Positions 10,662 to 57,041 are shown, numbered from the stretch's first letter. The stretch is DNA of 64,000 nucleotides from a virus (IMGVR_UViG_3300012954_004455:1-64000); one strand, 5' to 3'. Program-made: numbers and translations. Notes: generated by a model not told the origin, from the letters alone.

Positions 10662-12053
10662 TTACCCCAAATCGCCCACCATCTTCTCAGGTATCACAAC
10701 CCGATCAAACTCCTCCTCCGTCAATAACCCCAACATCAAAGCAGCTTCTTTCAAAGTAATGTCTTTCTTATAAGCCGTCTTCGCAATCGCTGCAGCATTG
10801 TCATACCCAATATGCGTATTCAATGCCGTAACCAACATCAACGAATTATTCAACAAGGTCTTAATTCGCTTATGGTTCGGCTCAATACCTACCGCTAGAT
10901 TCTTATTAAACGAATCGCAAGCATCCCCCAGCAATCGTGCAGACATCAAATAGTTGTAAATCATTACAGGCTTAAACACATTCAGCTGAAAGTGCCCATG
11001 CGTCCCAGCAACTGTAATAGCTGTATCGTTCCCAATAATCTGTGCACATACCATAGTCACGGCTTCAGCCTGTGTAGGATTAACCTTCCCTGGCATAATA
11101 GACGACCCAGGCTCATTAGCTGGGATAATAATCTCCCCTATCCCACAACGAGGCCCCGATGCCAACAACCGAATATTATTTGCAATATTCATAAAACTTA
11201 CGGCCGCCCGTTTCAATGCGCCAGACGCCTCTACAATTGCATCATGCGCAGACAAGGCCTCAAACTTATTCGGTGCACTCACAAAAGGATGTCCACTCAA
11301 CTCCGCAATCTTAGCCGCAACCTTCTCAGCATACCCACGAGGCGTATTCAAACCTGTACCCACAGCCGTTCCCCCCAATGCCAACTCACTCAGCCGTACC
11401 AGCACTCCCCGAATAGCCGAAATACTGTTCGCCAACTGCGTAGCATAACCCGAAAACTCCTGTCCCAATGTCACAGGTGTAGCATCCATCAAATGCGTAC
11501 GCCCAATCTTCACAACCTTCGAAAAAGCTGCAGCCTTAGCCGCTAACGTATCATGAAGAGCCTGTAGCTTTGGCAATGTATGCTCTACAGTCGCTTTATA
11601 GGCGGCAATATGCATAGCCGTAGGGAAAGTATCATTCGATGACTGCGCCTTATTCACATCGTCATTCGGATGCACAGGCTTCTTCGAACCAATCTCCCCC
11701 CCTAACAACTCAATCGCACGATTCGCAACTACCTCATTCACATTCATATTCGACTGAGTACCTGAACCCGTCTGCCAAACAACCAACGGAAAATGCCCGT
11801 CCAATTTCCCCGCCAATACTTCGTCACACACCTGCGCAATTATCTCCGCCTTACTCCCATCCAATGCCCCCAATTCAGCATTCGTCAATGCTGCCGCCTT
11901 CTTCAAGATAGCGTATGCCCGAATAACCTCTATAGGCATCTTATGACCCCCTATTTTAAAGTTCTGCAAGGAGCGCTGTGTCTGAGCACCCCAGTATCGA
12001 TCCGCGGGGACTTGAATCTCCCCCATTGTATCTTTCTCTATTCTGTATTGCAT
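10662..12053 (-). CDS. fumC: Class II fumarate hydratase
   Basis: [13 protein letters not shown] start, [23 protein letters not shown] and the [11 protein letters not shown] signature. Confidence 0.97.
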
Positions 12054-12300: not shown

Positions 12301-12717
12301 TTAGCCCAATTTTTCTAATACCTGGTTTAGTATCTGGAGGGAGTCTTTTTGGAGTGCCTCGCTGCCTTTTATGGCTTTTACTGTGGGGGTATCTCCCTGC
12401 AGGGCTGCATTGAGAGCCTTGATGAGGGCTTGCTTTTCTGTATGGAAGTCTAAGATTTGGGCTTTGAGTTTTAAGATATCTGCCTTTGCTTCTTTGCATT
12501 CTAAGTGCTTGAACTCTGGGAATAGCTCTGAGGGGGCTATTTCTCCTACATGCATCAAGGTTAGAATTTGAGCTGCTCTGAGGTTCGGGTTTGAGAGTAG
12601 ACTGGAAACATTGCTTTGTGTACGGTCTATTTTCTCAGCAATTTCTTTTTGGTTCATTGCTCGCTTTTTGAATAAAGCTTTGAAACGGTTCCCTAGATTT
12701 ATGTTCTGATAATCCAT
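12301..12717 (-). CDS. XRE/CI-like HTH repressor, paralog A
   Basis: LGNRFKALFKKRAMNQKEIAEKIDRTQSNVSSLL HTH; paralog of the next gene. Confidence 0.8.
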   Translation of the reverse strand: MDYQNINLGNRFKALFKKRAMNQKEIAEKIDRTQSNVSSLLSNPNLRAAQILTLMHVGEIAPSELFPEFKHLECKEAKADILKLKAQILDFHTEKQALIKALNAALQGDTPTVKAIKGSEALQKDSLQILNQVLEKLG

Positions 12718-12779
12718 AATTCAACCATTGTTGCTATTAATATAGATATATGTTTGTATTAAATGAGATTTTTACCCAT

Positions 12780-12803
12780 ATTTGTATAAGTTAATTAATA
12801 CAG
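12780..12803. promoter_or_regulatory. Duplicated operator/promoter block (copy 1)
   Basis: ATTTGTATAAGTTAATTAATACAG, 23/24 identical to 13296-13319. Confidence 0.6.
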
Positions 12804-12810
12804 CGAAGGG

Positions 12811-13233
12811 CTACGCGCCCAATTTGGCTGTAACGTTCTTTAAAATGCGGATGGAATTTGGGCTCAGGAGGTCTGGTTCAGACATGAGTCTATTCACATG
12901 GTCTCTTTTACCAGAAAGGGCTGCCTCTAGGAGCTCTAGAATGGCTTCTTTCTCGGTGTAGGTGTCGAGGATGTTTGATTGTAGCTTGAGAATCTTTTGT
13001 TTCTCGGCTTTGCATTCGAGATGCTTTAAGAAGGGAAAGATATCTGAAGGCGCAATCTCTGCATAAACCATGACTTCTATTACGAAATCGCTCCTTAGAC
13101 GAGCTCGTTTTAGTTTTTGGTTTATGTTCTGGTGATTTGATTCAAGGGCGTCTGCTAACTCAGTTTGAGAAACCCTTTTCTCTTTGAGAAGTTCCTTGAT
13201 TCTGGAACCTAAGTGAAAGTCTTCATAAGCCAT
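12811..13233 (-). CDS. XRE/CI-like HTH repressor, paralog B
   Basis: LGSRIKELLKEKRVSQTELADALESNHQNINQKL; shares APSxxFPxxKHLECK with paralog A. Start trimmed to ATG 13233. Confidence 0.8.
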   Translation of the reverse strand: MAYEDFHLGSRIKELLKEKRVSQTELADALESNHQNINQKLKRARLRSDFVIEVMVYAEIAPSDIFPFLKHLECKAEKQKILKLQSNILDTYTEKEAILELLEAALSGKRDHVNRLMSEPDLLSPNSIRILKNVTAKLGA

Positions 13234-13292
13234 GATTGATTTTTTAGTTTTAAAAAAGCAACTAAAAAGTTGCAAATAAAGAAAACATTGCT

Positions 13293-13328
13293 CACATTTG
13301 TATAAGCTAATTAATACAGGCAAATATA
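13293..13328. promoter_or_regulatory. Lysis-lysogeny switch region: face-to-face -7 boxes around a putative operator
   Basis: Rightward CACATTTG (13293-13300), leftward TATATTTG (complement of 13321-13328); Bacteroidota -7 consensus is TAnnTTTG. Confidence 0.55.
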
Positions 13329-13370
13329 AAGAATGATATATGCTTGTAGTAATTGAACGAAAGAAAATTG

Positions 13371-13595
13371 ATGATGGGAACAGCTATTAAGGTAAAAAGA
13401 GGAGACGTAAGTAGGGTAGTAGGGATTACTGGATTGCCTTTCCCTACGGTTTACTCTGCTTTAAACGGCCTCCGAAAAGGAGAGTTAAGTAAAGTGGTAA
13501 TCAGAGTGTACGGAGCTTTATTGGATTCTGATGAACAGATTGCCTTGCAGTATAAGGCAGGTAAGTTTGATGGAGATAATGGAGACAATAGTTAG
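13371..13595 (+). CDS. Cro-like small HTH protein
   Basis: Divergent from the repressors; GDVSRVVGITGLPFPTVYSALNG HTH; homolog at 54041. Confidence 0.7.
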   Translation: MMGTAIKVKRGDVSRVVGITGLPFPTVYSALNGLRKGELSKVVIRVYGALLDSDEQIALQYKAGKFDGDNGDNS

Positions 13596-13656
13596 GTTTA
13601 ATTGTTTGTTTGGAGAAAGGGGTAAATAGTTCCTAAAACAGGCTTAACAACCATCG

Positions 13657-14268
13657 GGGCGCGCGTGAGTGAAACACTATTCCTTGATAAGGAAGGATTG
13701 AAGCAATAGGTGGTTACTTTGCACTTAGCGCGCCCAATTTTTTAAGGAGATAATGAATGATAGATAATAGATTACACCTTATGTAAAGGGCGCGCTAGAT
13801 AGCGATATTAAATACTTAGGCAAGGACTCAGCTCATAACGCGCCCATTTTTTTAGAAACAACACCAAATCTATCTCAAGGGAGTGGGGATACAGTCGGGA
13901 TAGAGGGAGAATATAAATATGACAGTGCCACTCCTGATTTTTTTAGGTTTCAATAGTTGATCGAAAAGGCGCGGTATTCTAGTTGGATTCATGCTCAAAA
14001 GGCCAATATTAATTCTTTCTAATTCTTTCTTTTCGATGCCGCGCCCATTTTTTTAGATGCAATAGAAGATTCGGATAAATAAGTGAAAGGAGGTTTTATA
14101 TCACTGATATGTAAAAATATCTTGATGGGATAGCTGTATCTAGGATATACGGCAGTCTCTCGCATGCCAGGCCTGGCGCGAAAAAGAAGGCATCAATTTT
14201 TTCAATAACAACAGTGGGGTCGGGGGGAGAGTAGAAGAAGGGAAAAATACGCCTCTCGACCTTTTTTT
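13657..14268 (+). ncRNA. Putative array of six structured small RNAs or long-loop terminators
   Basis: No ORF of 60 aa or more. Six units of a closing stem (three are GGCGCG/CGCGCC), an unrelated 24-65 nt insert and a T6-7 tract. Confidence 0.5.
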
Positions 14269-14283
14269 AATGTGTATATAGTG

Positions 14284-14493
14284 ATGTTAAAATTAAGAGT
14301 TATAAAATTGATAGTTGGGCAATCTCCTATGATACTGGAACTGGATGTGAATCTGGATGATGAACGGTTCGAGTCGGTTGATTTTGAGAAGGCTTGGAAG
14401 GTTGCTAAGGATAAGCAGGCTGTAACGTTTGCGGATGAGAAGAAGGGAGATGTACTGCTGGTGACGGTAGCGAAGAAGGGGGGGCTGGGATGA
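14284..14493 (+). CDS. Hypothetical phage early protein
   Basis: ORF, ATGA-coupled to the next gene. Confidence 0.6.
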   Translation: MLKLRVIKLIVGQSPMILELDVNLDDERFESVDFEKAWKVAKDKQAVTFADEKKGDVLLVTVAKKGGLG

Positions 14494-15122
14494 TAATTAG
14501 AGAGGATCTGAGACCGTTTTTCCAGACTTACTTCTGGAAACCGACTGATTTGAAGGATGTTGAGGGGATGACTGAGTATTGGGTGGTGAAGTTTCCTTCT
14601 ATTATTAATAAGTTACTAGAAAAGAAGGAGGTGCTGGGGCATGCACATAAAGGGCTAGGGACGGATACGATTTGGTATAGTGATCCTGAACAGGATTATA
14701 CTGAGCTAATAGAGGAGATGAAGAATGAAATAGATGCTTGTACTCGTAGCCTATTTATGGTTGAACTGGGTGTAGGAGGGAAGGCTCATGATAAGAAGGG
14801 GGAGCTTGGGAGTACGGTGATGTACTTGGGCGAATACGCCCATTGGGAGGAGATTTATTATAAAATAGGCTGGAAAGAAGCCCACATGGAAGCGGCTCAA
14901 GGGATTAGAGGGCAAGGGCGAGGGACTTTCCATGAAAATACGATCATGAAAGTGGATACTTTCGGGAGATTCACGCTTTATTCTGATTATACGCTGCAAT
15001 GTGTATGCGAAGAGAAAGATATAGAGACGGTGAAAGAGTTCCTGAAGCTGGGAGCAGAGGAACACCTGAAGGCACTGAAAGGACTAATCATGCTGACCAT
15101 CAAAAGATTGAATAACGAATGA
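14490..15122 (+). CDS. Hypothetical phage early protein
   Basis: 210-aa ORF in a coupled operon. Confidence 0.7.
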   Translation: MIIREDLRPFFQTYFWKPTDLKDVEGMTEYWVVKFPSIINKLLEKKEVLGHAHKGLGTDTIWYSDPEQDYTELIEEMKNEIDACTRSLFMVELGVGGKAHDKKGELGSTVMYLGEYAHWEEIYYKIGWKEAHMEAAQGIRGQGRGTFHENTIMKVDTFGRFTLYSDYTLQCVCEEKDIETVKEFLKLGAEEHLKALKGLIMLTIKRLNNE

Positions 15123-16423
15123 TTACGAACAAGAAGATAGAACTCAGCACGTGTTCTAAGGACTTCATAAAGAAGAACTTTAAGAATGTGTTCAATGAAT
15201 TAAAAGAGCTATACAGAAAGGATCGGGCGGGGTTTCCTATAGAGGATTTTGTGCTTTATAAATCCGTCAAGGGGAAACAGACTGTGTACAAAACTACCAA
15301 AGAGATGGTTGCGGATATGGAACATTATAGCTTGAAGCTGAAAAGAGCTAGATCGGAGCGTTCTAAACTGAACTGGAAAACAAAGATATATTTGGCTGAA
15401 CTCGCGCTTGCATTGCCTATGAAAACACAGGAGGATCGGATGTACTTTGGGGTAGATGAGCCATTGGTGGCGAGCTGCCTTAAAGCTCTGGGAGAAAACT
15501 TGGTGTATGTGAATCATCTGGGGTGGGTGTGGACGAGAGACTTCAAAATGGGGGTTAAAGGGAAGAATGGGGAGTATGAGGTTTTGCCTGGGCTGGATGT
15601 ATCTCCAGAGTCAAAGGAGGGGTTTTGGGAGTATGAGGGGGTTCTGCCGTCATTGCGGCAGATGATGAAGGATAGAAGTAAGGTATTAAAGAAGATTTTG
15701 GGGTGGGAAGAAAAGGGGGAATTCAAGCATATAACAGTGACACTTGGGCTATATGAGCGGTTTGGGGATGATTGGATTCTGAATGAAGATGCCTACCCTA
15801 TATCTTATGATGAGCTTAATAAGCATGGGGTTTATTCTTACCGTACCTTGTCTGTGGAAGGGATAGGGAAACCCTATGAGACGTTTGAGACGGTTCAAGG
15901 GAGATATGAGGTGGAATGTATAGAGGGGGAAGAGGAGGAGGCATTGAAGGCTTTGAAGGAGTACTGGGAGAGATTTAGGGATGATAGCCCAATTGAGGCG
16001 GCTTTTAAATCGGGGAAACCAGTGATTATGCATACCTATACAGAAACCACGCCCCTCGATGGGGAAGATGAAGACCTGAGCGACAAATGTGAGTGGGAGT
16101 TTAGGTATAAGAGCTGGCAGGAGATTGAAAACACCTTCGCTTTGGTTATGCTGGAGCATGATCCAGAACCAAAACGGTATGAATTTGAGGCAATGTTCTA
16201 TATAAAGATGAGATATAAGAATGATGTTGTTTGTATCTCATTATCTGATGAGATGATGGGCAAAGATACAATTGACTTTTGGTATGAGACTGCCCATTGG
16301 GCGCACCCTATGGGGAGAAAAGAAGGGGAGAGCCAGATTGACTTTTTGAAGAGACTGGATCGGTACATAGGGGCGAGTGTAAGGGAGTTTGAAAAGGAGG
16401 AGGGGACAGATGAAGGAGACTAA
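15119..16423 (+). CDS. Hypothetical phage early protein
   Basis: 434-aa ORF in a coupled operon. Confidence 0.75.
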   Translation: MITNKKIELSTCSKDFIKKNFKNVFNELKELYRKDRAGFPIEDFVLYKSVKGKQTVYKTTKEMVADMEHYSLKLKRARSERSKLNWKTKIYLAELALALPMKTQEDRMYFGVDEPLVASCLKALGENLVYVNHLGWVWTRDFKMGVKGKNGEYEVLPGLDVSPESKEGFWEYEGVLPSLRQMMKDRSKVLKKILGWEEKGEFKHITVTLGLYERFGDDWILNEDAYPISYDELNKHGVYSYRTLSVEGIGKPYETFETVQGRYEVECIEGEEEEALKALKEYWERFRDDSPIEAAFKSGKPVIMHTYTETTPLDGEDEDLSDKCEWEFRYKSWQEIENTFALVMLEHDPEPKRYEFEAMFYIKMRYKNDVVCISLSDEMMGKDTIDFWYETAHWAHPMGRKEGESQIDFLKRLDRYIGASVREFEKEEGTDEGD

Positions 16424-16805
16424 GCATGTGATTGAGATTGAGGTCAGAGTGTGTGGATCAACTCTTTATGTATTGACTCGGGATTTAAAAGCCCACAGAC
16501 TTTCAAAAGATGGGCTGTATCTGCTACCTGTGCCGAGTGCTATTTTTGATATTAACGGCTGTCATGGACTAAGCCCTCTCCAAAGGATGCCATTCCTGGC
16601 AAAGGAGATAGGCCAAATCAAGAGAAAAAGTTTCTTCTTAAAGGTCAATGTTACATGGACATGGAAATGTCTTGTATTTAAGGAGAACTTGGAGGAAATG
16701 AAATTGAGGATACTGGAGGAGGCGGAAATCCTATTGGAGGGGAAGCTATGGGAAATCAAACATGTTCTACAACAAATAGATGAAAAGCTATGCAAAAAAG
16801 AGTAG
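16410..16805 (+). CDS. Hypothetical phage early protein
   Basis: ORF overlapping both neighbours; ATG 16410. Confidence 0.65.
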   Translation: MKETKHVIEIEVRVCGSTLYVLTRDLKAHRLSKDGLYLLPVPSAIFDINGCHGLSPLQRMPFLAKEIGQIKRKSFFLKVNVTWTWKCLVFKENLEEMKLRILEEAEILLEGKLWEIKHVLQQIDEKLCKKE

Positions 16806-17083
16806 TAGCATACGATAATAAAACGAAGGCGATGCAAGTGGCCGAGAAGATGCGAAGTGATATAATGGGGGCTGAAGGGAAATGGGAATATGGGGTAAAA
16901 AACACTGAAAACGGATATTGGGCTCCTATGCTGAAGGTACTGACGCAAGGATTAACAGTGAGAATTTTTAAGGTAGAGAATGGCCTTACCTATATGGCTG
17001 CCTACCAACTCTCAGGGACGAAGGGGAAATGGGCGACAGGGAGCAGCCCAGCAAATGCTCTTTACAGACTTTTAAATAATTAG
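16790..17083 (+). CDS. Hypothetical protein (paralog of 20779..21075)
   Basis: YDNKTKAMQVAEKM...GYWAPMLK versus YETKEAAEKVAEEM...GYVPSLK. Confidence 0.65.
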   Translation: MQKRVVAYDNKTKAMQVAEKMRSDIMGAEGKWEYGVKNTENGYWAPMLKVLTQGLTVRIFKVENGLTYMAAYQLSGTKGKWATGSSPANALYRLLNN

Positions 17084-17126
17084 AGTTAAGAAAGGCTGTT
17101 GAAAAAATACGAAAGCTACATAAACG

Positions 17127-17786
17127 ATGAAGAGAATAATAGAAGCAGCAGTGCCTCCTAAGAAGGTTTTTAGGACGGATGAGGCAAGGATAAAAGCCTC
17201 CAGAAGAGTTGAGGAGTGGCTGAAAGGTAGTAAACTTGAGGGGAAGGTTAATGTTTTCTCGAAGGACGGATGGACATATGAGATACAATGGACATTTCAT
17301 AAAGACGACTATAATGAAATCACGATCAAGGCTCATGAGATAAAAGGAGATAAGGAGGATCGGGTTTGTTTTTTTGCTTGGGCAGAAGATGAGTTTGTGG
17401 TGACTGGGAGTGGGGAAAACCTTATAAATCTTTTATGCTCTATGAAACGGGAGCTGATCGGAGGACAAGGAGACGAGTGGGAGCAAGTGAAAGAGATAGA
17501 TAAGTTTAGCTTTTCTCTGGCTCTTAATGCGTTTCATACAACGCAAAGGATGGGAGAGTATAAAAGAGGGTATTTTGGGTGGGAGGAGGTGAATGGATCC
17601 AAAACTATACGCCCCTACAAGGTGGGAATGATAGATAAGAGCGGGGAGTTTCCTTTTGTTGAGTACACGGTTATTTGCTTCTCGAAACAAAGAGAGGCTT
17701 ATGAACGGAAGGTAATTAAGCAGGTGAGAGAGGATTTCGAGAAGGTAAAGGAGAGCTTAAATAGGGCAGGATGGATATGCTCGTAA
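17127..17786 (+). CDS. Hypothetical phage early protein
   Basis: 219-aa ORF. Confidence 0.7.
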   Translation: MKRIIEAAVPPKKVFRTDEARIKASRRVEEWLKGSKLEGKVNVFSKDGWTYEIQWTFHKDDYNEITIKAHEIKGDKEDRVCFFAWAEDEFVVTGSGENLINLLCSMKRELIGGQGDEWEQVKEIDKFSFSLALNAFHTTQRMGEYKRGYFGWEEVNGSKTIRPYKVGMIDKSGEFPFVEYTVICFSKQREAYERKVIKQVREDFEKVKESLNRAGWICS

Positions 17787-18079
17787 TGAAATATAGATGT
17801 GACCTCAAGCATTTTAAGACGGGTAAGGCGGCGGAGGTGTGGGGGAAGCGATTGGTGAAACGCCTGGGGCGAGAAGCAAGAGTTGATGCTGTGGGGTTTG
17901 ATGATCTGGAAGGGGTGGCTAGGTACTCTTTTCGGATATGGCTAACGGGGCAGAAAAGGGATGTTTATCTCTTTGAGGAACCCAGTGGGGAGGATGAAGA
18001 AAGAAAGTTCCTCCTGTGGGATGGGACTAAGGAGGAAAGATTTGAAGGACTGAATGATTTGATAGAGTATTTAAAGTAA
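17771..18079 (+). CDS. Hypothetical phage early protein
   Basis: 102-aa ORF in operon. Confidence 0.65.
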   Translation: MDMLVMKYRCDLKHFKTGKAAEVWGKRLVKRLGREARVDAVGFDDLEGVARYSFRIWLTGQKRDVYLFEEPSGEDEERKFLLWDGTKEERFEGLNDLIEYLK

Positions 18080-18086
18080 TAGAGTT

Positions 18087-18701
18087 ATGTATAAAGAAGA
18101 CTTACAGAAGATTTGGGCTGAACGCCCACAAGATATGGCAATAAGCAAGATCCTGTCTCCAGGGAAGTCTCTACAGGATCTTTATGAAATCAACGCGCAA
18201 ACGTTGGGGGAGATGAGAAAAATCCTAAAGGGAGCTAGAACACGTTTGGAGGAAATGCATGAGTTTTTTGTCTTGAAAGATATTGATGTGAGCGGGTGGG
18301 ATGCCTGGATAAGTGAGATGGGAAATGCCATTGACCAATACGAAAGGGAGAAAATGCCTTATAATAAGCGCACCCAAGTTCACGCAATTATTGTGATGAT
18401 AAAGGACAAGCAAATTAAGATAGAAGAGCGTGAGTGGCATCAGGTGTCTTACGAGAAACTGCGGGGTGAAGAGGAGATGGGGGAATGGCGTGGAATACAG
18501 ACCAAAATATCATTCTCTCAGGGAGCCTTGCTACACAACTATCAACCCATATCCTTGGACTCAGACCATAAATGGTTCTTTACTACTGAATATGGGTTGA
18601 AATGGGTACAGAGAGAAATTTTAAGGCTTGCGATAGAGATGGCTAATATGAAGGGGTATTCAATTGTTTTGGAAAAGGAGAAGGTAGAGGTAGAATTATA
18701 G
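18087..18701 (+). CDS. Hypothetical phage early protein
   Basis: 204-aa ORF. Confidence 0.7.
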   Translation: MYKEDLQKIWAERPQDMAISKILSPGKSLQDLYEINAQTLGEMRKILKGARTRLEEMHEFFVLKDIDVSGWDAWISEMGNAIDQYEREKMPYNKRTQVHAIIVMIKDKQIKIEEREWHQVSYEKLRGEEEMGEWRGIQTKISFSQGALLHNYQPISLDSDHKWFFTTEYGLKWVQREILRLAIEMANMKGYSIVLEKEKVEVEL

Positions 18702-18743
18702 AAAAGTTCTCAGGCATTATAAATAACATTTAAGTGTGGTAAT

Positions 18744-19442
18744 ATGAATGAAAGAAGAGAGCGAAATAGAAAACGTCGGGGGCAGGGAGAACTTTGGGAG
18801 GTGTATGGAATACAGAAAGAAGCTCCGAAGGTTTTAAGGTTTTTGGAGGAAGAAGTGGGGGGAATGTGGGAACAGGGGGGAAAAACAGGAGAGAACCCTA
18901 GTGTGATATTCAGAGGAAGAGCAGGGAAACGGGCTGTCTCCTTAAGACTACTGAGAGGACAAAAACTAAAGGTGATTTCTCCTATAGAAGATCTGGGTCT
19001 GAGCTCAGGAGCTCAAACGTTCTTTCTTGGAGCGATCAGTTATAGGGCTCTGCTGCCAACGGTACGAGCAATTTTGGGACTGGGAGATAGAGAGGTGCCG
19101 CTGAAGCATGCGAATATATTGGAGACTGTTGTTTTGATGCATACATGTGCAGCATTGTTGGAGATGGAAGAATGGTGGAAGAGGCAACAATACGAATTGA
19201 GGGTGGTGACTTCTAGCCCACGAAGAGATGTTTTAGGGTTTGGGCTGGAAAGCCTTATGCACCCTTTGGATGTGAAAAGACAACTAACTGCTGAGATACA
19301 AGGGGTACGGGATGGTGGGGTGGTTAGTATGAAGCTGATGGAAAGTGGTGAATGGATGTTTGATGGGAAAGGGGTAAAACTATTTGCGCATACGTTTGGC
19401 GATTTGATGGATGAGATGAAGGGGTTGCAGAATGATGGGTAA
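18744..19442 (+). CDS. Hypothetical protein, paralog 1 of a tandem triplet
   Basis: FLEEEVGGMW...LKVISPI...LLPTVRAILG...ESGEWMFDG. Confidence 0.75.
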   Translation: MNERRERNRKRRGQGELWEVYGIQKEAPKVLRFLEEEVGGMWEQGGKTGENPSVIFRGRAGKRAVSLRLLRGQKLKVISPIEDLGLSSGAQTFFLGAISYRALLPTVRAILGLGDREVPLKHANILETVVLMHTCAALLEMEEWWKRQQYELRVVTSSPRRDVLGFGLESLMHPLDVKRQLTAEIQGVRDGGVVSMKLMESGEWMFDGKGVKLFAHTFGDLMDEMKGLQNDG

Positions 19443-20130
19443 GAATATGTCTGCAGCCAATTTCTGGAAGCTTTACGCGATGACAGAAGAAGCAACCAAG
19501 ATAGTCGAGTACTTGACACGCGAGGTAGGCGGGGCATGGAAGCATAGGAAAGAGCCCAAGGCAGCTTTTACTTCACAAAAAATGCCCAAAGTAATTATCG
19601 AGGGTGAAGTGGATGGAGCGAAAATAGAGTTTGAGCTGCGGGAGGACAGAAACCTTAAGGTTTTCTCTCCAATACCCAATGAGAAAATTAGTCTGGAGGA
19701 ACGGAGATTCATGGCAAAACGATCAGTAGGCTATTGGGATTTATTACCGACTGTGCGAGTGGTTTTGGGGGTGGGAGAAAGAGGGGAAGCATTGAGGTTT
19801 GGAGAGATATTACACCCCAGGGTTATGCTACATGCCCGTGTTGTGATTCTGGAAGCACAAGAGTGGTGGAAGGATTTGGGGTATGAGCTTAAAGTAGCAG
19901 TCTATGAACCGCCAACTCTACCTATGAATCTAGATTTTACGCATGTGCACTCTTTGGATAAGGAGAGAACTATAATGGGGGAGATTCTGGGGATGAGAAA
20001 TGGGGACGTCGTTTTCTCTGTGAAACCATTGGAGAATGGAGAGTGGATGTTTGAAGGATTTGACAGGACTCTGTATGCCTGTACGTTTGAGGGACTACAC
20101 ACACCTATGAAGGGGGTATTAACTAAATAG
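19432..20130 (+). CDS. Hypothetical protein, paralog 2 of a tandem triplet
   Basis: YLTREVGGAW...LKVFSPI...LLPTVRVVLG...ENGEWMFEG. Confidence 0.75.
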   Translation: MMGKNMSAANFWKLYAMTEEATKIVEYLTREVGGAWKHRKEPKAAFTSQKMPKVIIEGEVDGAKIEFELREDRNLKVFSPIPNEKISLEERRFMAKRSVGYWDLLPTVRVVLGVGERGEALRFGEILHPRVMLHARVVILEAQEWWKDLGYELKVAVYEPPTLPMNLDFTHVHSLDKERTIMGEILGMRNGDVVFSVKPLENGEWMFEGFDRTLYACTFEGLHTPMKGVLTK

Positions 20131-20132
20131 CT

Positions 20133-20804
20133 ATGAAAACAAACTCAATATTTCTTTATAACTATTGTCATCAGAGGATGCATGGAATTATAATTGGACT
20201 GGAGAGGCACGTTGGGGGAACATGGGACTATCGTTCTCGATATCTTTTAGAGCAATACGAACACATTTTATTGGGGTATGTGAATGGAATGCCCATAGCA
20301 TGGAAAGTGGTGGAGCCTTATAAGTTTGTGGCGCAGGATCCCCGAATAATGGATGAGCAATTGATGTTTTTTGGGGAGGAGGTATATGAAGATGTACTAG
20401 TGAACGCAACTCAAATACTCTTAGGGGGCGAGGCTACGACTCTGATGCATTTTGCTGTTTCTAAACGAATCGAGGAGATAATGTACAAAGCATCTGTCTT
20501 GATAAAAGAAGAAATGCAAGAACTCCCTGAAGGGGGAAGGTTTCGTGTGGAGATTCATACGCCTCCTTTGAACCCTACAGGGGTGGAGAAGCTTCACAGA
20601 CAGGGAGAGTATAGTTATCGGTTTACGAGTAGACTTGTGGTGTTAGACACTGGAGGGATAGGGAAGTTTCATTTTCAACTTATGAAAAATGGAGAATGGA
20701 AGTATGAAGAGCTACAAGGGAATCAAAATGTTTTATATGGCAATACATTAACAGAATTAATTAAAAAGCTGAATAATTATGATAAAAAGCTTATTAGGCA
20801 ATAG
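20133..20804 (+). CDS. Hypothetical protein, diverged paralog 3
   Basis: GLERHVGGTW...KNGEWKYE...LYGNTLTEL. Confidence 0.7.
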   Translation: MKTNSIFLYNYCHQRMHGIIIGLERHVGGTWDYRSRYLLEQYEHILLGYVNGMPIAWKVVEPYKFVAQDPRIMDEQLMFFGEEVYEDVLVNATQILLGGEATTLMHFAVSKRIEEIMYKASVLIKEEMQELPEGGRFRVEIHTPPLNPTGVEKLHRQGEYSYRFTSRLVVLDTGGIGKFHFQLMKNGEWKYEELQGNQNVLYGNTLTELIKKLNNYDKKLIRQ

Positions 20805-21763: not shown

Positions 21764-21809
21764 TTGGAGGGATGGTCTTTAGGGAGGTTCGAATCCTCCT
21801 CCTCTGACA
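21764..21809 (+). ncRNA. tRNA-like minihelix (acceptor-like stem plus perfect T-arm)
   Basis: GGAGG-TTCGAAT-CCTCC T-arm stacked on a TTGGAGGG/TCCTCTGA stem; no D or anticodon arm. Confidence 0.45.
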
Positions 21810-21942
21810 ACATTACTAATTACACATAGTGTCGCCCTCTGGGATAAAACTCAGGGGGCTTTTTTCCCAGGTAACTTTTATTTCAAAGCATCTCAAATTC
21901 AAAGCTTTAATGTTTTGGATGGAGAGGAAAATCTACAGTGAA

Positions 21943-50901: not shown

Positions 50902-52170
50902 TTAGAAGTGGGCGTAGGCTGAGGTGAGGCTGGAGTTTGCGAGGTCATTGGCGATGTGTAGGTAGACCTGTAAGGTGGAGAGGGACTTTATGCCTGCTAG
51001 TTTTTTGACGCGCTCGATGGGGACTCCACGAGCGATAGACATGGTGATGAAGGTATGCCTGGCATCGTGCATTTTGGTGGGGCGAGTGGCGAGTTCGGGT
51101 ATTAGGGTGCATATGTGCTTTATCTCTAGGTTGCATTCGCAGTTATTGGGGAGGGTGTGGAATAGGTAGGGCGATGAGCTGCGAGGGGGGATGAAGCGGG
51201 AGATCATTTTGTTTATTTGGATGCGGATGGTTATGCCTGAGGTGCGACGGGTTTTGTGGGGCTGGTAGGTGATGAGGTTGTTTTTTATGTGGGTGTATTG
51301 GATGCGCTTTAGGTCTGAGTATCTGAAGCCTGTGAAGCATGAGAAAAGGAAGGCTCGTAGGACGCGCTGAACTTTATCGACTTTCTCCTGGCATACGTAG
51401 CGTGATGCGTGCCAGGGGGTAAGACCTCGGGTGGTGGCTTTTTCTCTGAGGCGATCGAGGATGGTGGATGGTGACTCTATGAGGGATATAAGTAGGCGTA
51501 CTTCTGCTTCTGTGAGGGGGGTGGGATCTGGACGAGAGGTGGGTAGTTTTTTCTTATAGAAGGCTGAGGGGGATACTTGGTGGCCTTCGTTTTGGGCGAA
51601 ACGAAGGTATTTTCTGATGTTAAGGAATAGGCGCCTTCTTTCTGTGATGCCTGTGTGGCCTTTTTCTGCAAGCCATTTTGAGTGTGCTGTATCGAGGTTT
51701 TCGAGGAACTCACGGGTTATGTGATTTGGGGGAAGGTGGGAACCTGCGAAGCGGATGAGCTTACGAAGGGAACGACGCTCGGTGGTGAGGGTTCCTTTTG
51801 TGATGTCTCCCTTTTTATGGGCTTCGGTCATTCTGGTGCGATAGAACTGAATGAAGTTGTGCTGGGGGAGGGGAGATGAGGATCCATACCATTCTTGTTT
51901 GAAGAGGGTATTGGAGAGCGGCTTTTTCTCATGAACGTATGTAAGGACTATCTCGCTGGCTTTGGCGACGAGGGCTTTTATGTGGGCGTTTTGCTTTGCG
52001 GCGAGAGCGTTTTTGCCTTTTACGTGGCCTTTATTGGGATTCCATACTTTTTTATCTATCCGTAAGCCTGTGGTGAGGCGCATGGGGCTACCATTTATAT
52101 TTACGTATAGAAGAATGGTATGAAGGCCGTGCTTGGTAGGTCGGTTTTTAAGTACTGGTTTTATGGTCAT
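50902..52170 (-). CDS. int: Tyrosine recombinase (phage integrase) with N-terminal arm-binding domain
   Basis: FLFSCFTGFRYSD, HDARHTF, catalytic Tyr in TLQVYLH; adjacent to att. Confidence 0.92.
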   Translation of the reverse strand: MTIKPVLKNRPTKHGLHTILLYVNINGSPMRLTTGLRIDKKVWNPNKGHVKGKNALAAKQNAHIKALVAKASEIVLTYVHEKKPLSNTLFKQEWYGSSSPLPQHNFIQFYRTRMTEAHKKGDITKGTLTTERRSLRKLIRFAGSHLPPNHITREFLENLDTAHSKWLAEKGHTGITERRRLFLNIRKYLRFAQNEGHQVSPSAFYKKKLPTSRPDPTPLTEAEVRLLISLIESPSTILDRLREKATTRGLTPWHASRYVCQEKVDKVQRVLRAFLFSCFTGFRYSDLKRIQYTHIKNNLITYQPHKTRRTSGITIRIQINKMISRFIPPRSSSPYLFHTLPNNCECNLEIKHICTLIPELATRPTKMHDARHTFITMSIARGVPIERVKKLAGIKSLSTLQVYLHIANDLANSSLTSAYAHF

Positions 52171-54040: not shown

Positions 54041-54340
54041 ATGGATAATTCTAGTAGTATCCTCGCAGATCAAAACCCATTAGAACAAGAATACGATCCT
54101 TTCTTCATTCTACTCGCAGAGAACCTCATAGATTTAGAAGTAGATGTAGTTTTCCCCGCTCAACGGGAATCAGATTATGAAGAAATAAGCAGAATTACAG
54201 GCTTGTGTTTATCAACTGTAAAGTCTGCAATTAAGGGGAGAACCCACGGAGCAAAATCAAAGTACGCACGAACAGTTCAACGTCTACTGAAAGCGTTTAG
54301 AGAGGCAAGCAGAGAGTATTTTTATCAAAAGGGAAAGTAA
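54041..54340 (+). CDS. Cro-like HTH protein
   Basis: SDYEEISRITGLCLSTVKSAIKG; homolog of 13371. Confidence 0.7.
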   Translation: MDNSSSILADQNPLEQEYDPFFILLAENLIDLEVDVVFPAQRESDYEEISRITGLCLSTVKSAIKGRTHGAKSKYARTVQRLLKAFREASREYFYQKGK

Positions 54341-54573
54341 GGTTCTGCATAGAGGAAAGTAGGGGAGAAGGCAAGGTTCTCCCCATTTTTTAAGCATACC
54401 AATAACAATCAGATACGTAGATGTAATCATAAGGCAGAGCCAGTTCCCATCTGGCTCTCGTCTTTTCTCTCTACCAATCTGAATTGAAAAGATACAGAGT
54501 AAACATCCTTAACTAAGCAGTTACAAAATCGCAGAACCAGCCTAATCACCTGGTTTTGCATATCTTAAGAACA

Positions 54574-54696
54574 ATGGGAATAGTAATATTCATGATTTCT
54601 TTGGTGGCTGCTGTTTACAGAGTTTTGCATTTCTGGCTCTTTTTAGACCAGTATTTTGTAAGCAGAAGGTCTCGGAAAAATCGACAAGGTAAATAG
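54574..54696 (+). CDS. Small hydrophobic peptide (40 aa, absent from the ORF track)
   Basis: MGIVIFMISLVAAVYRVLHFWLFLDQYFVSRRSRKNRQGK. Confidence 0.45.
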   Translation: MGIVIFMISLVAAVYRVLHFWLFLDQYFVSRRSRKNRQGK

Positions 54697-54827
54697 AGAA
54701 CTCGGGGGCGGTGTGGTAGCCGTCTCCATTTTTAAACAAGAATTGGGCGTTAGGTGCATATATCAAGGTGGGAGGGGGAAACCCCTCCCTTTATCACCAA
54801 ACGAGACGAAATACACACATTAATATT

Positions 54828-55049
54828 ATGACACTCATCCATCACAGAACAATCCTTCTAGAAATAATAAACGGACTCCTAAAAGGAGATTTCCACAATT
54901 ATCATTATGAAGGGATTACACTTGCTAGATCTGAGAGTACCAAGTCTAATTGGATATTCACAACCGGGAAAGATTGCCGAATGATAAACATGGATCATAA
55001 CACCCCAATGGGGGTCGCCAACTTACTCGCAAAAAAGATAATGGAATGA
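54828..55049 (+). CDS. Hypothetical phage early protein
   Basis: ATG 54828, coupled to the next gene. Confidence 0.6.
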   Translation: MTLIHHRTILLEIINGLLKGDFHNYHYEGITLARSESTKSNWIFTTGKDCRMINMDHNTPMGVANLLAKKIME

Positions 55050-56813: not shown

Positions 56814-57041
56814 ATGGCATTAACTATAGCGCAAAGAGAGGTCATAGAAATCGGCAACCGCTGGTTCGATCATGGAGAAAACGAATTCCTATTCAAAGGC
56901 TGGAAGCTCATTTTTAGCAAAGATGGCTTCTCAGTGAACATAGAAACGATAAAAGTATTCTCCTATGCGATCCCGCTCACGGATTTGAATCCCATCCTAG
57001 CTCCTACCATACTATATCTGAATCATAGGTTAATTAATTAA
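56814..57041 (+). CDS. Hypothetical protein
   Basis: 75-aa ORF. Confidence 0.55.
   Translation: MALTIAQREVIEIGNRWFDHGENEFLFKGWKLIFSKDGFSVNIETIKVFSYAIPLTDLNPILAPTILYLNHRLIN

Follow-up and report, generated by a model that had tools for sequence, protein, structure and literature searches.

What is the function of the repetitive, ORF-poor segment at positions 13,657 to 14,268 of the viral sequence IMGVR_UViG_3300012954_004455, which separates a cro-like gene from the early genes of a prophage? The window, i.e. the whole stretch of 64,000 nucleotides that was analysed, is the first 64 kb of a 92,342-bp IMG/VR provirus record. After a host flank, this record consists of two tandem prophages, the first at about 12.1-52.3 kb and the second at about 52.3-92.3 kb. 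A preliminary description had recognized in the first prophage, behind its Cro gene, an array of six units, each consisting of a GC clamp, a variable insert, the matching half of the clamp and a U-tract, within a region without a substantial open reading frame (ORF). Our analysis establishes that five of these units (U1-U4 and U6) are real and exceptional. As for their function, the sequence evidence leads us to favor, at about even chances, a stack of terminators or attenuators that would gate the early operon. This reading is the best supported because the units share position and strand, carry U-tracts, contain no promoters of their own, and have a counterpart in the second prophage.

The units are the following:

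13657-13743, plus strand: U1, an 8-bp clamp (GGGCGCGC/GCGCGCCC), then AA and T6 (13738-13743).
13788-13853, plus strand: U2, a 7-bp clamp (GGGCGCG/CGCGCCC) closing a 44-nt open loop, then A and T7 (13847-13853).
13880-13944, plus strand: U3, a 7-bp clamp (GGAGTGG/CCACTCC) closing a 41-nt purine-rich open loop, then TGA and T7 (13938-13944).
13960-14054, plus strand: U4, a clamp (GGCGCGGTAT/ATGCCGCGCC) with a perfect 7-bp core closing an open loop of about 58-64 nt, then CA and T7 (14048-14054).
14122-14202, plus strand: U5, a 6-bp AT-rich clamp (TTGATG/CATCAA) round two local hairpins, then T6; unsupported as a unit like the others.
14218-14268, plus strand: U6, a 10-bp clamp (GGTCGGGGGG/CCTCTCGACC) with two G-U pairs closing a 24-nt purine-rich open loop, with T7 (14262-14268) directly after it.

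Every clamp and T-run coordinate of the preliminary description is correct, and the array does lie in an ORF-poor gap 3' of a gene for a Cro-like helix-turn-helix (HTH) protein: between 13630 and 14271, no ORF of at least 30 amino acids exists on the plus strand. Genes for small peptides were accordingly rejected as an explanation, the only mini-ORF with a Shine-Dalgarno-like sequence having nine codons. The stems of U1-U4 and U6 are perfect over 7-10 bp with at least five G/C, the stem of U5 being 6 bp long and AT-rich, and a run of six or seven T residues starts 0-3 nt past every stem, on the plus strand throughout. The loops of U1, U2, U3, U4 and U6 measure 63, 44, 41, 64 and 24 nt, respectively. 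In U1, the clamp is lengthened by TGAGTG/CACTTA to a 14-bp helix with one bulge, which leaves about 50 nt unpaired inside; the loop of U4 holds two tandem copies of TAATTCTTTC, and its 3' half is CU-rich. U6 is the last unit ahead of the early genes.

The architecture of clamp, insert, clamp and U-tract is far beyond chance for U1-U4 and U6. For an exact-stem test, both strands of the 92,342-bp record were searched for runs of at least six T preceded, at a distance of at most 3 nt, by a perfect stem of at least 7 bp with at least five G/C and a loop of 20-75 nt. Four of the 147 T-runs pass; they are those of U1-U4, all located at 13657-14045, whereas shuffling of the upstream sequence gives an expectation of 0.185 per record. 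An energy test, in which the 14 nt before each T-run were paired with the stretch 20-80 nt further upstream, places U1, U4, U6, U2 and U3 (in this order) at ranks 1-5 of 147, with duplexes of -22.2 to -15.1 kcal/mol versus a median of -6.7. Because U5 attains only rank 90 of 147 (-5.9 kcal/mol), it is unsupported as a unit, and the proposed number of six is hence reduced to five. Furthermore, six runs of at least six T occur on one strand within 735 bp, where about 0.6 are expected, and the CpG-rich clamp words, which are scarce in the record, are clustered at the array. A mere coincidence of T-runs and complementary words in an AT-rich spacer, from which U5 is indistinguishable, is refuted for U1-U4 and U6 by the exact-stem count, the energy ranks and the concentration of these rare words, and as an account of the array it is scarcely credible.

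The long loops are equally exceptional outside the array. Every other strong terminator of the record, in both prophages, has a loop of 3-11 nt. An outside background of 544.5 kb, mostly from Bacteroidota loci and with 1206 T-runs, yielded 16 short-loop stems and three nominal long-loop stems; one of the latter is really a long short-loop hairpin, and the other two have loops of about 20-25 nt. An open loop of 40-65 nt was not seen anywhere in this background.

Local folds form the closing stems, most stably in U1 (-31.5 kcal/mol, z -3.63), followed by U6 (z -2.47), U4 (-2.09), U2 and U3 (both about -1.6) and U5 (-0.95). The inserts behave differently when they are folded alone and compared with shuffled sequences: z is +0.31 for U1, +1.53 for U2, -0.11 for U3 and +0.99 for U4; 197 of 200 shuffles fold at least as well as the loop of U2, 173 of 200 at least as well as that of U4, and the loop of U6 has no structure whatever. 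Stable internal hairpins, which had been reported for both U1 and U5, are present in U5 only; the insert of U1 is not significantly structured. Since the loops are unfolded, the architecture is that of a GC clamp which holds open a long single-stranded loop.

Three of the units have a common origin. U1, U2 and U4 are paralogues with related 3' halves: U1 and U2 agree in 23 of their last 29 nt, and an exact 16-mer, GCGCCCATTTTTTTAG, closes U2 and U4 and has a third copy with two mismatches. Their interiors do not align, in agreement with the earlier statement that the inserts are mutually unrelated. That the paralogues kept clamp and U-tract while their interiors diverged counts for the terminator stack. 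Covariation of the stems had been claimed for U3, U5 and U6. What we observe is a single compensatory change among the paralogues, at clamp position 8 (C-G in U1, G-C in U4, a C.A mismatch in U2); U3 and U6 just have stems of unrelated sequence.

All units lie on the strand of cro and the early genes, and their strand asymmetry is strict: on the transcribed strand, the T-run always follows its stem on the 3' side, and the opposite flank has no A/T-run to match. This asymmetry is needed by an RNA signal and not by a DNA palindrome, and for this reason explanations at the level of DNA are disfavored. According to them, the array would be a replication origin, a protein-binding array or an attC-like recombination cluster, in which the repeats serve as cruciforms or protein sites and the T-runs as bends. 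The location would suit such an element, because the non-coding gap separates the immunity genes from the genes towards primase, where some phages keep their origin; so would the duplication of the exact 16-mer with its third, imperfect copy, and units of 55-79 bp with 7-bp inverted cores resemble attC sites in geometry. Yet the clamp sequences of U3 and U6 differ, which argues against a common protein site, and there are neither attC core sites nor cassettes between the units. In all, we hold a DNA-level element to be improbable. Integron attC sites in particular were rejected: the motifs RYYYAAC/GTTRRRY are missing, the clamp words read GGGCGCG, GGAGTGG and GGTCGGGGGG, and the 21-76-bp spacers contain no ORF.

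A repeat array of the CRISPR, TIGR or ToxI-like type was likewise rejected. Only the 3' clamp and the T-run recur, at irregular spacings of 110, 201 and 149 bp; the mean column identity across units is 51%, and there is no tandem periodicity. With irregular spacing and no near-identical repeats, the earlier exclusion of CRISPR and TIGR is upheld.

How the array would act as a terminator stack depends on its neighbors in the immunity region of the first prophage:

12301-12717 and 12811-13233, minus strand: two paralogous XRE-type repressors, divergent from cro.
13371-13595, plus strand: cro-like HTH gene directly 5' of the array, 74 amino acids from ATG, with an 80-amino-acid form from TTG at 13353.
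13757-13786, plus strand: mini-ORF of nine codons (MIDNRLHLM), with AAGGAG 5' of it at a spacing of 7 nt and its stop 1 nt before the 5' clamp of U2.
14329-14493, plus strand: first early ORF past the array, 54 amino acids from ATG, with an ATGA overlap with the next ORF (14490-15122).

From the ORF at 14329, an operon of orphan genes runs up to the primase gene. We infer from the sequence that the hairpins of the array terminate transcription and that they gate this operon. The array would then form the untranslated leader of the rightward early transcript, started at the cro promoter in the divergent immunity switch, and would present five signals of the intrinsic-terminator type in series (U1, U2, U3, U4 and U6), each with a G+C-rich stem and U6-U7 0-3 nt further on. 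Every stem would close a largely single-stranded loop of 24-64 nt in place of one of 3-10 nt. RNA polymerase that proceeds past cro would encounter these terminators in succession, and hence leaky transcription in the lysogen would stop before the early lytic genes (14329 onwards). Since each 5' arm has to stay available while 40-65 nt are transcribed up to its 3' arm, the signals would be sub-maximal, or else would depend on what is paired with or bound to the open loop or the 5' arm; possible occupants are the alternative helix in U4, the interchangeable arms of U1 and U2 (both described below), or some other factor. Read-through after induction would require cumulative leakiness or an antitermination factor, and nested cro-leader RNAs that end at each U-tract would be a by-product.

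The alternative pairings are as follows. The 3' arm of U1 and the 5' arm of U2 are perfectly complementary over 10 bp, and when the whole leader is folded at equilibrium from the transcription start, the arms of the two units exchange partners, with A:D outside and B:C inside. U4 contains a 9-bp helix of 13960-13968 with 14029-14037 that crosses the clamp pairing, so that the two are mutually exclusive. A classic 1:2 / 2:3 / 3:4 attenuator, in which the arms of U1 and U2 would pair alternatively and the mini-ORF would encode the leader peptide, was considered and rejected, as the complementarity follows trivially from the palindromic GCGCGC core. The leader-peptide version is also disfavored by a host that probably lacks Shine-Dalgarno-led initiation, and an equivalent of the mini-ORF is absent from the other units; its significance is doubtful.

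Several observations weigh against the terminator stack. With respect to the features of an intrinsic terminator, the G+C-rich stem is present in all units except U5 and a U-tract is nearby; the short loop is missing. The loops span 24-64 nt, compared with the canonical 3-10 nt, which is the selection window for terminators mapped by Rend-seq (bioRxiv 10.64898/2026.05.29.728758), and with 3-11 nt in the other strong terminators of the record. In long-context folds, U2 does not form and U3 forms partially. In equilibrium folds, the 5' arm of each unit is mostly paired elsewhere before its 3' arm exists (P 0.57-1.00). Neither an antiterminator gene nor a nut-like site or put-like element was identified. 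In favor of the stack, on the other hand, the clamps of U1, U4 and U6 are stable in the context of the transcript: the predicted probability of the clamp is 0.99-1.00 for U1, 0.93-0.99 for U6, and 0.91-1.00 when U1, U4 and U6 are taken together; it is 0.01-0.73 for U3 and 0.00-0.22 for U5. Because closure of a long loop should be slow or weak and the 5' arm is open to competing pairings, termination at these sites would probably be partial or conditional.

The second prophage offers a comparison within the same record:

54043-54341: Cro-like gene of the second prophage, homologous to that of the first.
54342-54828, plus strand: post-cro non-coding leader of the second prophage; besides other hairpins, it contains three terminators with ordinary short loops (54362, 54436, 54704).

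This leader of about 490 bp is highly structured (z -4.82; none of 100 shuffles folds as well). Both prophages thus have in common a terminator-rich untranslated leader after cro, and the long open loops are peculiar to the first. A strong terminator at 21834, in the early region before primase, is a further reason why read-through control is plausibly part of the program of this phage.

Tandem intrinsic terminators are known from the early-operon attenuation leaders of other phages, e.g. the tR1 to tR3 region of lambda and the putR-tR1 region of HK022. The array resembles these leaders in that G+C-rich stems are followed by U6-U7, are co-directional, stand after cro and before the early lytic genes, and occur several in series. 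It differs from them in its unstructured loops of 24-64 nt, in its three paralogous units with interchangeable arms, in the lack of a recognizable N-, Q- or put-type antitermination component, and in a host that is probably a member of the Bacteroidota and not an enterobacterium. Non-canonical terminator geometry has also been reported in another context: PMC8355165 describes clusters of ordinary hairpins 3' of stop codons that induce intrinsic termination in bacteria. These clustered or branched hairpins share with the array the unusual geometry and the serial arrangement; the array differs in being made of single GC clamps that close long open loops within a phage leader.

The open loops could be understood in another way, namely as sequences displayed for pairing. 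In this scaffold-plus-payload cassette, which the preliminary description had placed beside a stacked attenuator, discrete small RNAs of 45-80 nt would be released, whose paired ends protect them and whose open loops act in trans as antisense RNA, decoy or sponge. Their 5' ends would be generated by a nuclease of the transfer RNA (tRNA) maturation type that recognizes an acceptor-like stem (7 bp, G at position 1, an unpaired A after it), and their 3' ends by termination or trimming of the U-trailer, which is compatible with the terminator stack. We regard the cassette as possible but unlikely. It is favored by the unusual openness of the loops, as expected of a displayed pairing sequence, and by the combination of paralogous scaffolds (U1, U2 and U4) with unrelated inserts. 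Independent promoters were not found within the array, either of the sigma-70 or of the Bacteroidota type (no TAnnTTTG -7 motif on the plus strand), and this counts against it. So does the lack of targets: the best duplexes of the inserts with the cro leader, the early genes, the repressor mRNAs and the immunity region of the second prophage are no better than those of shuffled inserts, and short-word BLAST searches of both prophages and the host flank gave matches of at most 12-16 nt (E of at least 0.2), which is chance level. The target search that had been suggested thus gave nothing above shuffled controls in either prophage or the host flank. Furthermore, the inserts are unstructured and do not look like folded payloads. 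The array matches no Rfam family, as the proposed check has now made clear (Rfam 15: no match at the gathering score anywhere in the window, and no relevant match at E up to 10 in 12500-15500). A recognizable RNA-binding, Cas-like or RAMP partner protein is not found near it, and a search of 2.9 million viral contigs for the clamp pattern gave no second example. Between the two earlier readings, the evidence favors the stacked attenuator, and the small-RNA cassette is left with no targets, Rfam match, partner protein or folded inserts.

Two further observations concern antisense pairing. A match to the Bacteroidota -7 motif, TAGATTTG, lies on the minus strand at 13865-13872, between U2 and U3; it points leftward, and transcription from it could produce antisense RNA to U2, U1 and cro. 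Chance is the probable explanation of this match, as the window as a whole contains 44 matches to this motif where 45 are expected. The sequence AAAATTGAT(G) is present at the start of cro (13364-13373) and again 25 nt before the first early ORF (14304-14312). Each copy is the perfect complement of the 3' arm of U5 with its T-run (CATCAATTTT, 14191-14200), which is about chance level in an AT-rich region.

The resemblance of the clamps to tRNA acceptor stems deserves separate consideration. It consists of 7-bp stems starting with G and an unpaired A; in U1 and U2, clamp, A and T-run form a word with which genuine tRNA-Ile and tRNA-Val genes elsewhere end (as acceptor stem, discriminator and trailer), and this supports the small-RNA cassette. 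A decayed array of tRNA genes that kept their acceptor stems might explain the same word with its discriminator-like A. In addition, the 7 nt UUGAUAA at the tip of a 4-bp stem in U1 (13680-13694) can be read as the loop of a GAU anticodon, and ARAGORN calls U1 a tRNA-Ile(gat) at a threshold of 70%. This call is noise, because a threshold of 75% already gives 143 'tRNAs' in the 92-kb record. At the default and at 80%, ARAGORN finds nothing, i.e. no cloverleaf with D, anticodon and T arms; Rfam shows no tRNA match even at E up to 10; the inserts are unstructured and have no D-arm or T-arm; and U2 and U3 are just 55-58 nt long. We consider a tRNA array effectively refuted and very improbable.

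Elements resembling the 3' half of a tRNA occur just upstream of the primase gene in both prophages, at 21764-21866 in the first and at 56965-57010 in the second. The former has a perfect T-arm (GGAGG-TTCGAAT-CCTCC) and an acceptor-like strand, followed by the strong terminator mentioned above (21834-21866); the latter reads GGATTTGAATCC...AGCTCCT-A-CCA. They may represent a processing signal, a remnant of an attachment (att) site or part of an origin. As they are found in both prophages, these phages may use tRNA mimics, and in this respect the elements speak for the small-RNA cassette. One specific version of it would be a display cassette encoded by the phage, in which the GC clamps mimic acceptor stems and host tRNA-maturation enzymes, together with termination, excise stable RNAs of 45-80 nt whose loops act in trans; these single-stranded loops, specific to each unit, would for example pair as antisense RNA, or divert a host nuclease or defense sensor as decoys. 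We rate this version as rather doubtful.

Small RNAs from an untranslated early-operon leader have precedents in the immunity RNAs of phages P4 (CI RNA) and P1/P7 (C4 RNA), which are processed by RNase P, have paired, acceptor-like ends and act on termination in their own operon. The array shares their setting, as it lies between the stop of cro (13595) and the first early ORF (14329). Its differences from both are that immunity in the prophage is protein-based, with two HTH repressors, and that there are five different units instead of one. P4 CI, whose processing from the untranslated leader of early genes is a precedent for the cassette, depends on complementary seqA and seqC boxes that lie on the same transcript (PMC4825925). 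In the array, by comparison, there is no seqA/seqC-like complementarity above that of shuffled sequences, and no Rfam C4 match. The vrRNA arrays of VIPR (bioRxiv 10.64898/2026.04.26.720920) are also phage-borne and consist of short non-coding units with unit-specific variable sequence. An assignment to VIPR was rejected: the rhythm of GGY-NN pentamers is missing, no run of GGNNN is longer than 2, and the autocorrelation of G at lag 5 is 0.00. A Cas7/RAMP-like Vipr gene is not recognizable among the early ORFs by Pfam, PADLOC or NCBIfam matches, these ORFs being themselves orphans, with poor structure models for the two that were checked (210 and 434 amino acids).

Does the clamp pattern exist elsewhere? 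In genome contigs, it has 96 matches, and at 9 of the first 30 loci a tRNA gene is located at the match. Two matches without a tRNA were read. One is G+C-rich, apparently coding, and likely a product of chance; the other is intergenic and belongs to a genome of Alistipes. In this uncultured Alistipes sp. (USBO01000027.1; L030:1366-1440), the unit has the same geometry as those of the array, with 49 nt between the arms of a perfect 12-bp clamp (ATGGGCGCGGCA/TGCCGCGCCCAT) and a T-run after it. The unit lies about 80 nt past a 425-amino-acid ORF, just after an ordinary hairpin, and has no Rfam match. Long-loop clamps may therefore occasionally serve as gene-end terminators in this phylum.

The identity of the host bears on some of these arguments. 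At the end of the host flank lies a gene with informative relatives:

10662-12053, minus strand: class II fumarase (Pfam Lyase_1, 3e-111).

The closest relatives of this fumarase come mostly from metagenome-assembled genomes of Bacteroidota, at 66-74% identity. We take the host to be probably a member of the Bacteroidota because the -7 motif TAnnTTTG of this phylum is found at both immunity switches (13321 on the minus strand; 53938 on the plus and 53962 on the minus strand). Bacteroidota make little use of Shine-Dalgarno pairing. Given this probable host, arguments based on the sigma-70 hexamer or on Shine-Dalgarno sequences are weakened, and the mini-ORF before U2 is given little weight.

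The two prophages are distant relatives, with 25-35% amino acid identity in primase and late genes. Both end with a tyrosine integrase; the integrase genes lie at the right end on the minus strand (50902-52170, and 91089-92342 of the record) and share 33% identity with each other, and that of the first prophage carries an Arm-DNA-bind_5 domain. On its left side, the first prophage adjoins the fumarase gene, with no integrase there. Its coding strand has a very strong excess of purines and of G from 14000 to 52000, with a GC skew of +0.3 to +0.4 over tens of kb; in the toxin-like host genes (1-10.6 kb), the pattern is reversed (GC skew -0.14 to -0.38, AT skew about +0.3).

The phage lineage is an extreme orphan. 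In a HMMER search of 1.84 billion representatives, Cro matched itself and repetitive long proteins only. Against 5.8 billion clusters, the 434-amino-acid early protein and the repressor profile found proteins of their own record only, and the C-terminal part of the primase found one outside relative, at 23% identity; the cluster members of primase and Cro represent the same phage, about 99.9% identical, from other assemblies; near-identical copies lie on an ENA contig of 83.9 kb and on Logan contigs of 14.4 and 8.3 kb. The region 13300-14500 had no blastn match among 50,697 phage records. The 210-amino-acid neighbor protein was not found in viral, genome or metagenome contigs, the primase alignment retrieved generic DnaG domains only from viral contigs, and the repressor alignment gave no match there. 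Nor was the C-terminal part of the primase found in 401 genomes of the candidate host phylum, i.e. that of the best fumarase match. No ORF at 14329-20804 belongs to a Pfam, PHROG, PADLOC or NCBIfam family, and Atlas structure models of the 210- and 434-amino-acid early proteins are poor, with a predicted local distance difference test (pLDDT) score of 0.33-0.37. A usable homologous post-cro region from relatives did not turn up in any of the searches. Because the finding comes from just one orphan lineage of phages, it can be generalized only to a limited extent.

We would class the array with intrinsic terminators or attenuators, as an unusual form of their architecture; the chance that it is a new scaffold for small RNAs is modest. 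If the latter were true, the released RNAs would constitute a new scaffolded small-RNA family, and as a display cassette the array would represent a modular RNA family of clamp plus programmable loop that has no described relative. If the terminator stack is true, the early lytic operon of a temperate phage, probably one of Bacteroidota, is protected by several long-open-loop terminators in series. Terminator predictors exclude this long-loop geometry by design, so such signals would be systematically missed in annotation. The conditional closure of long-loop terminators would be a simple way for binding to the loop to control termination, and the array, with five natural variants in one leader, would make this idea directly testable.

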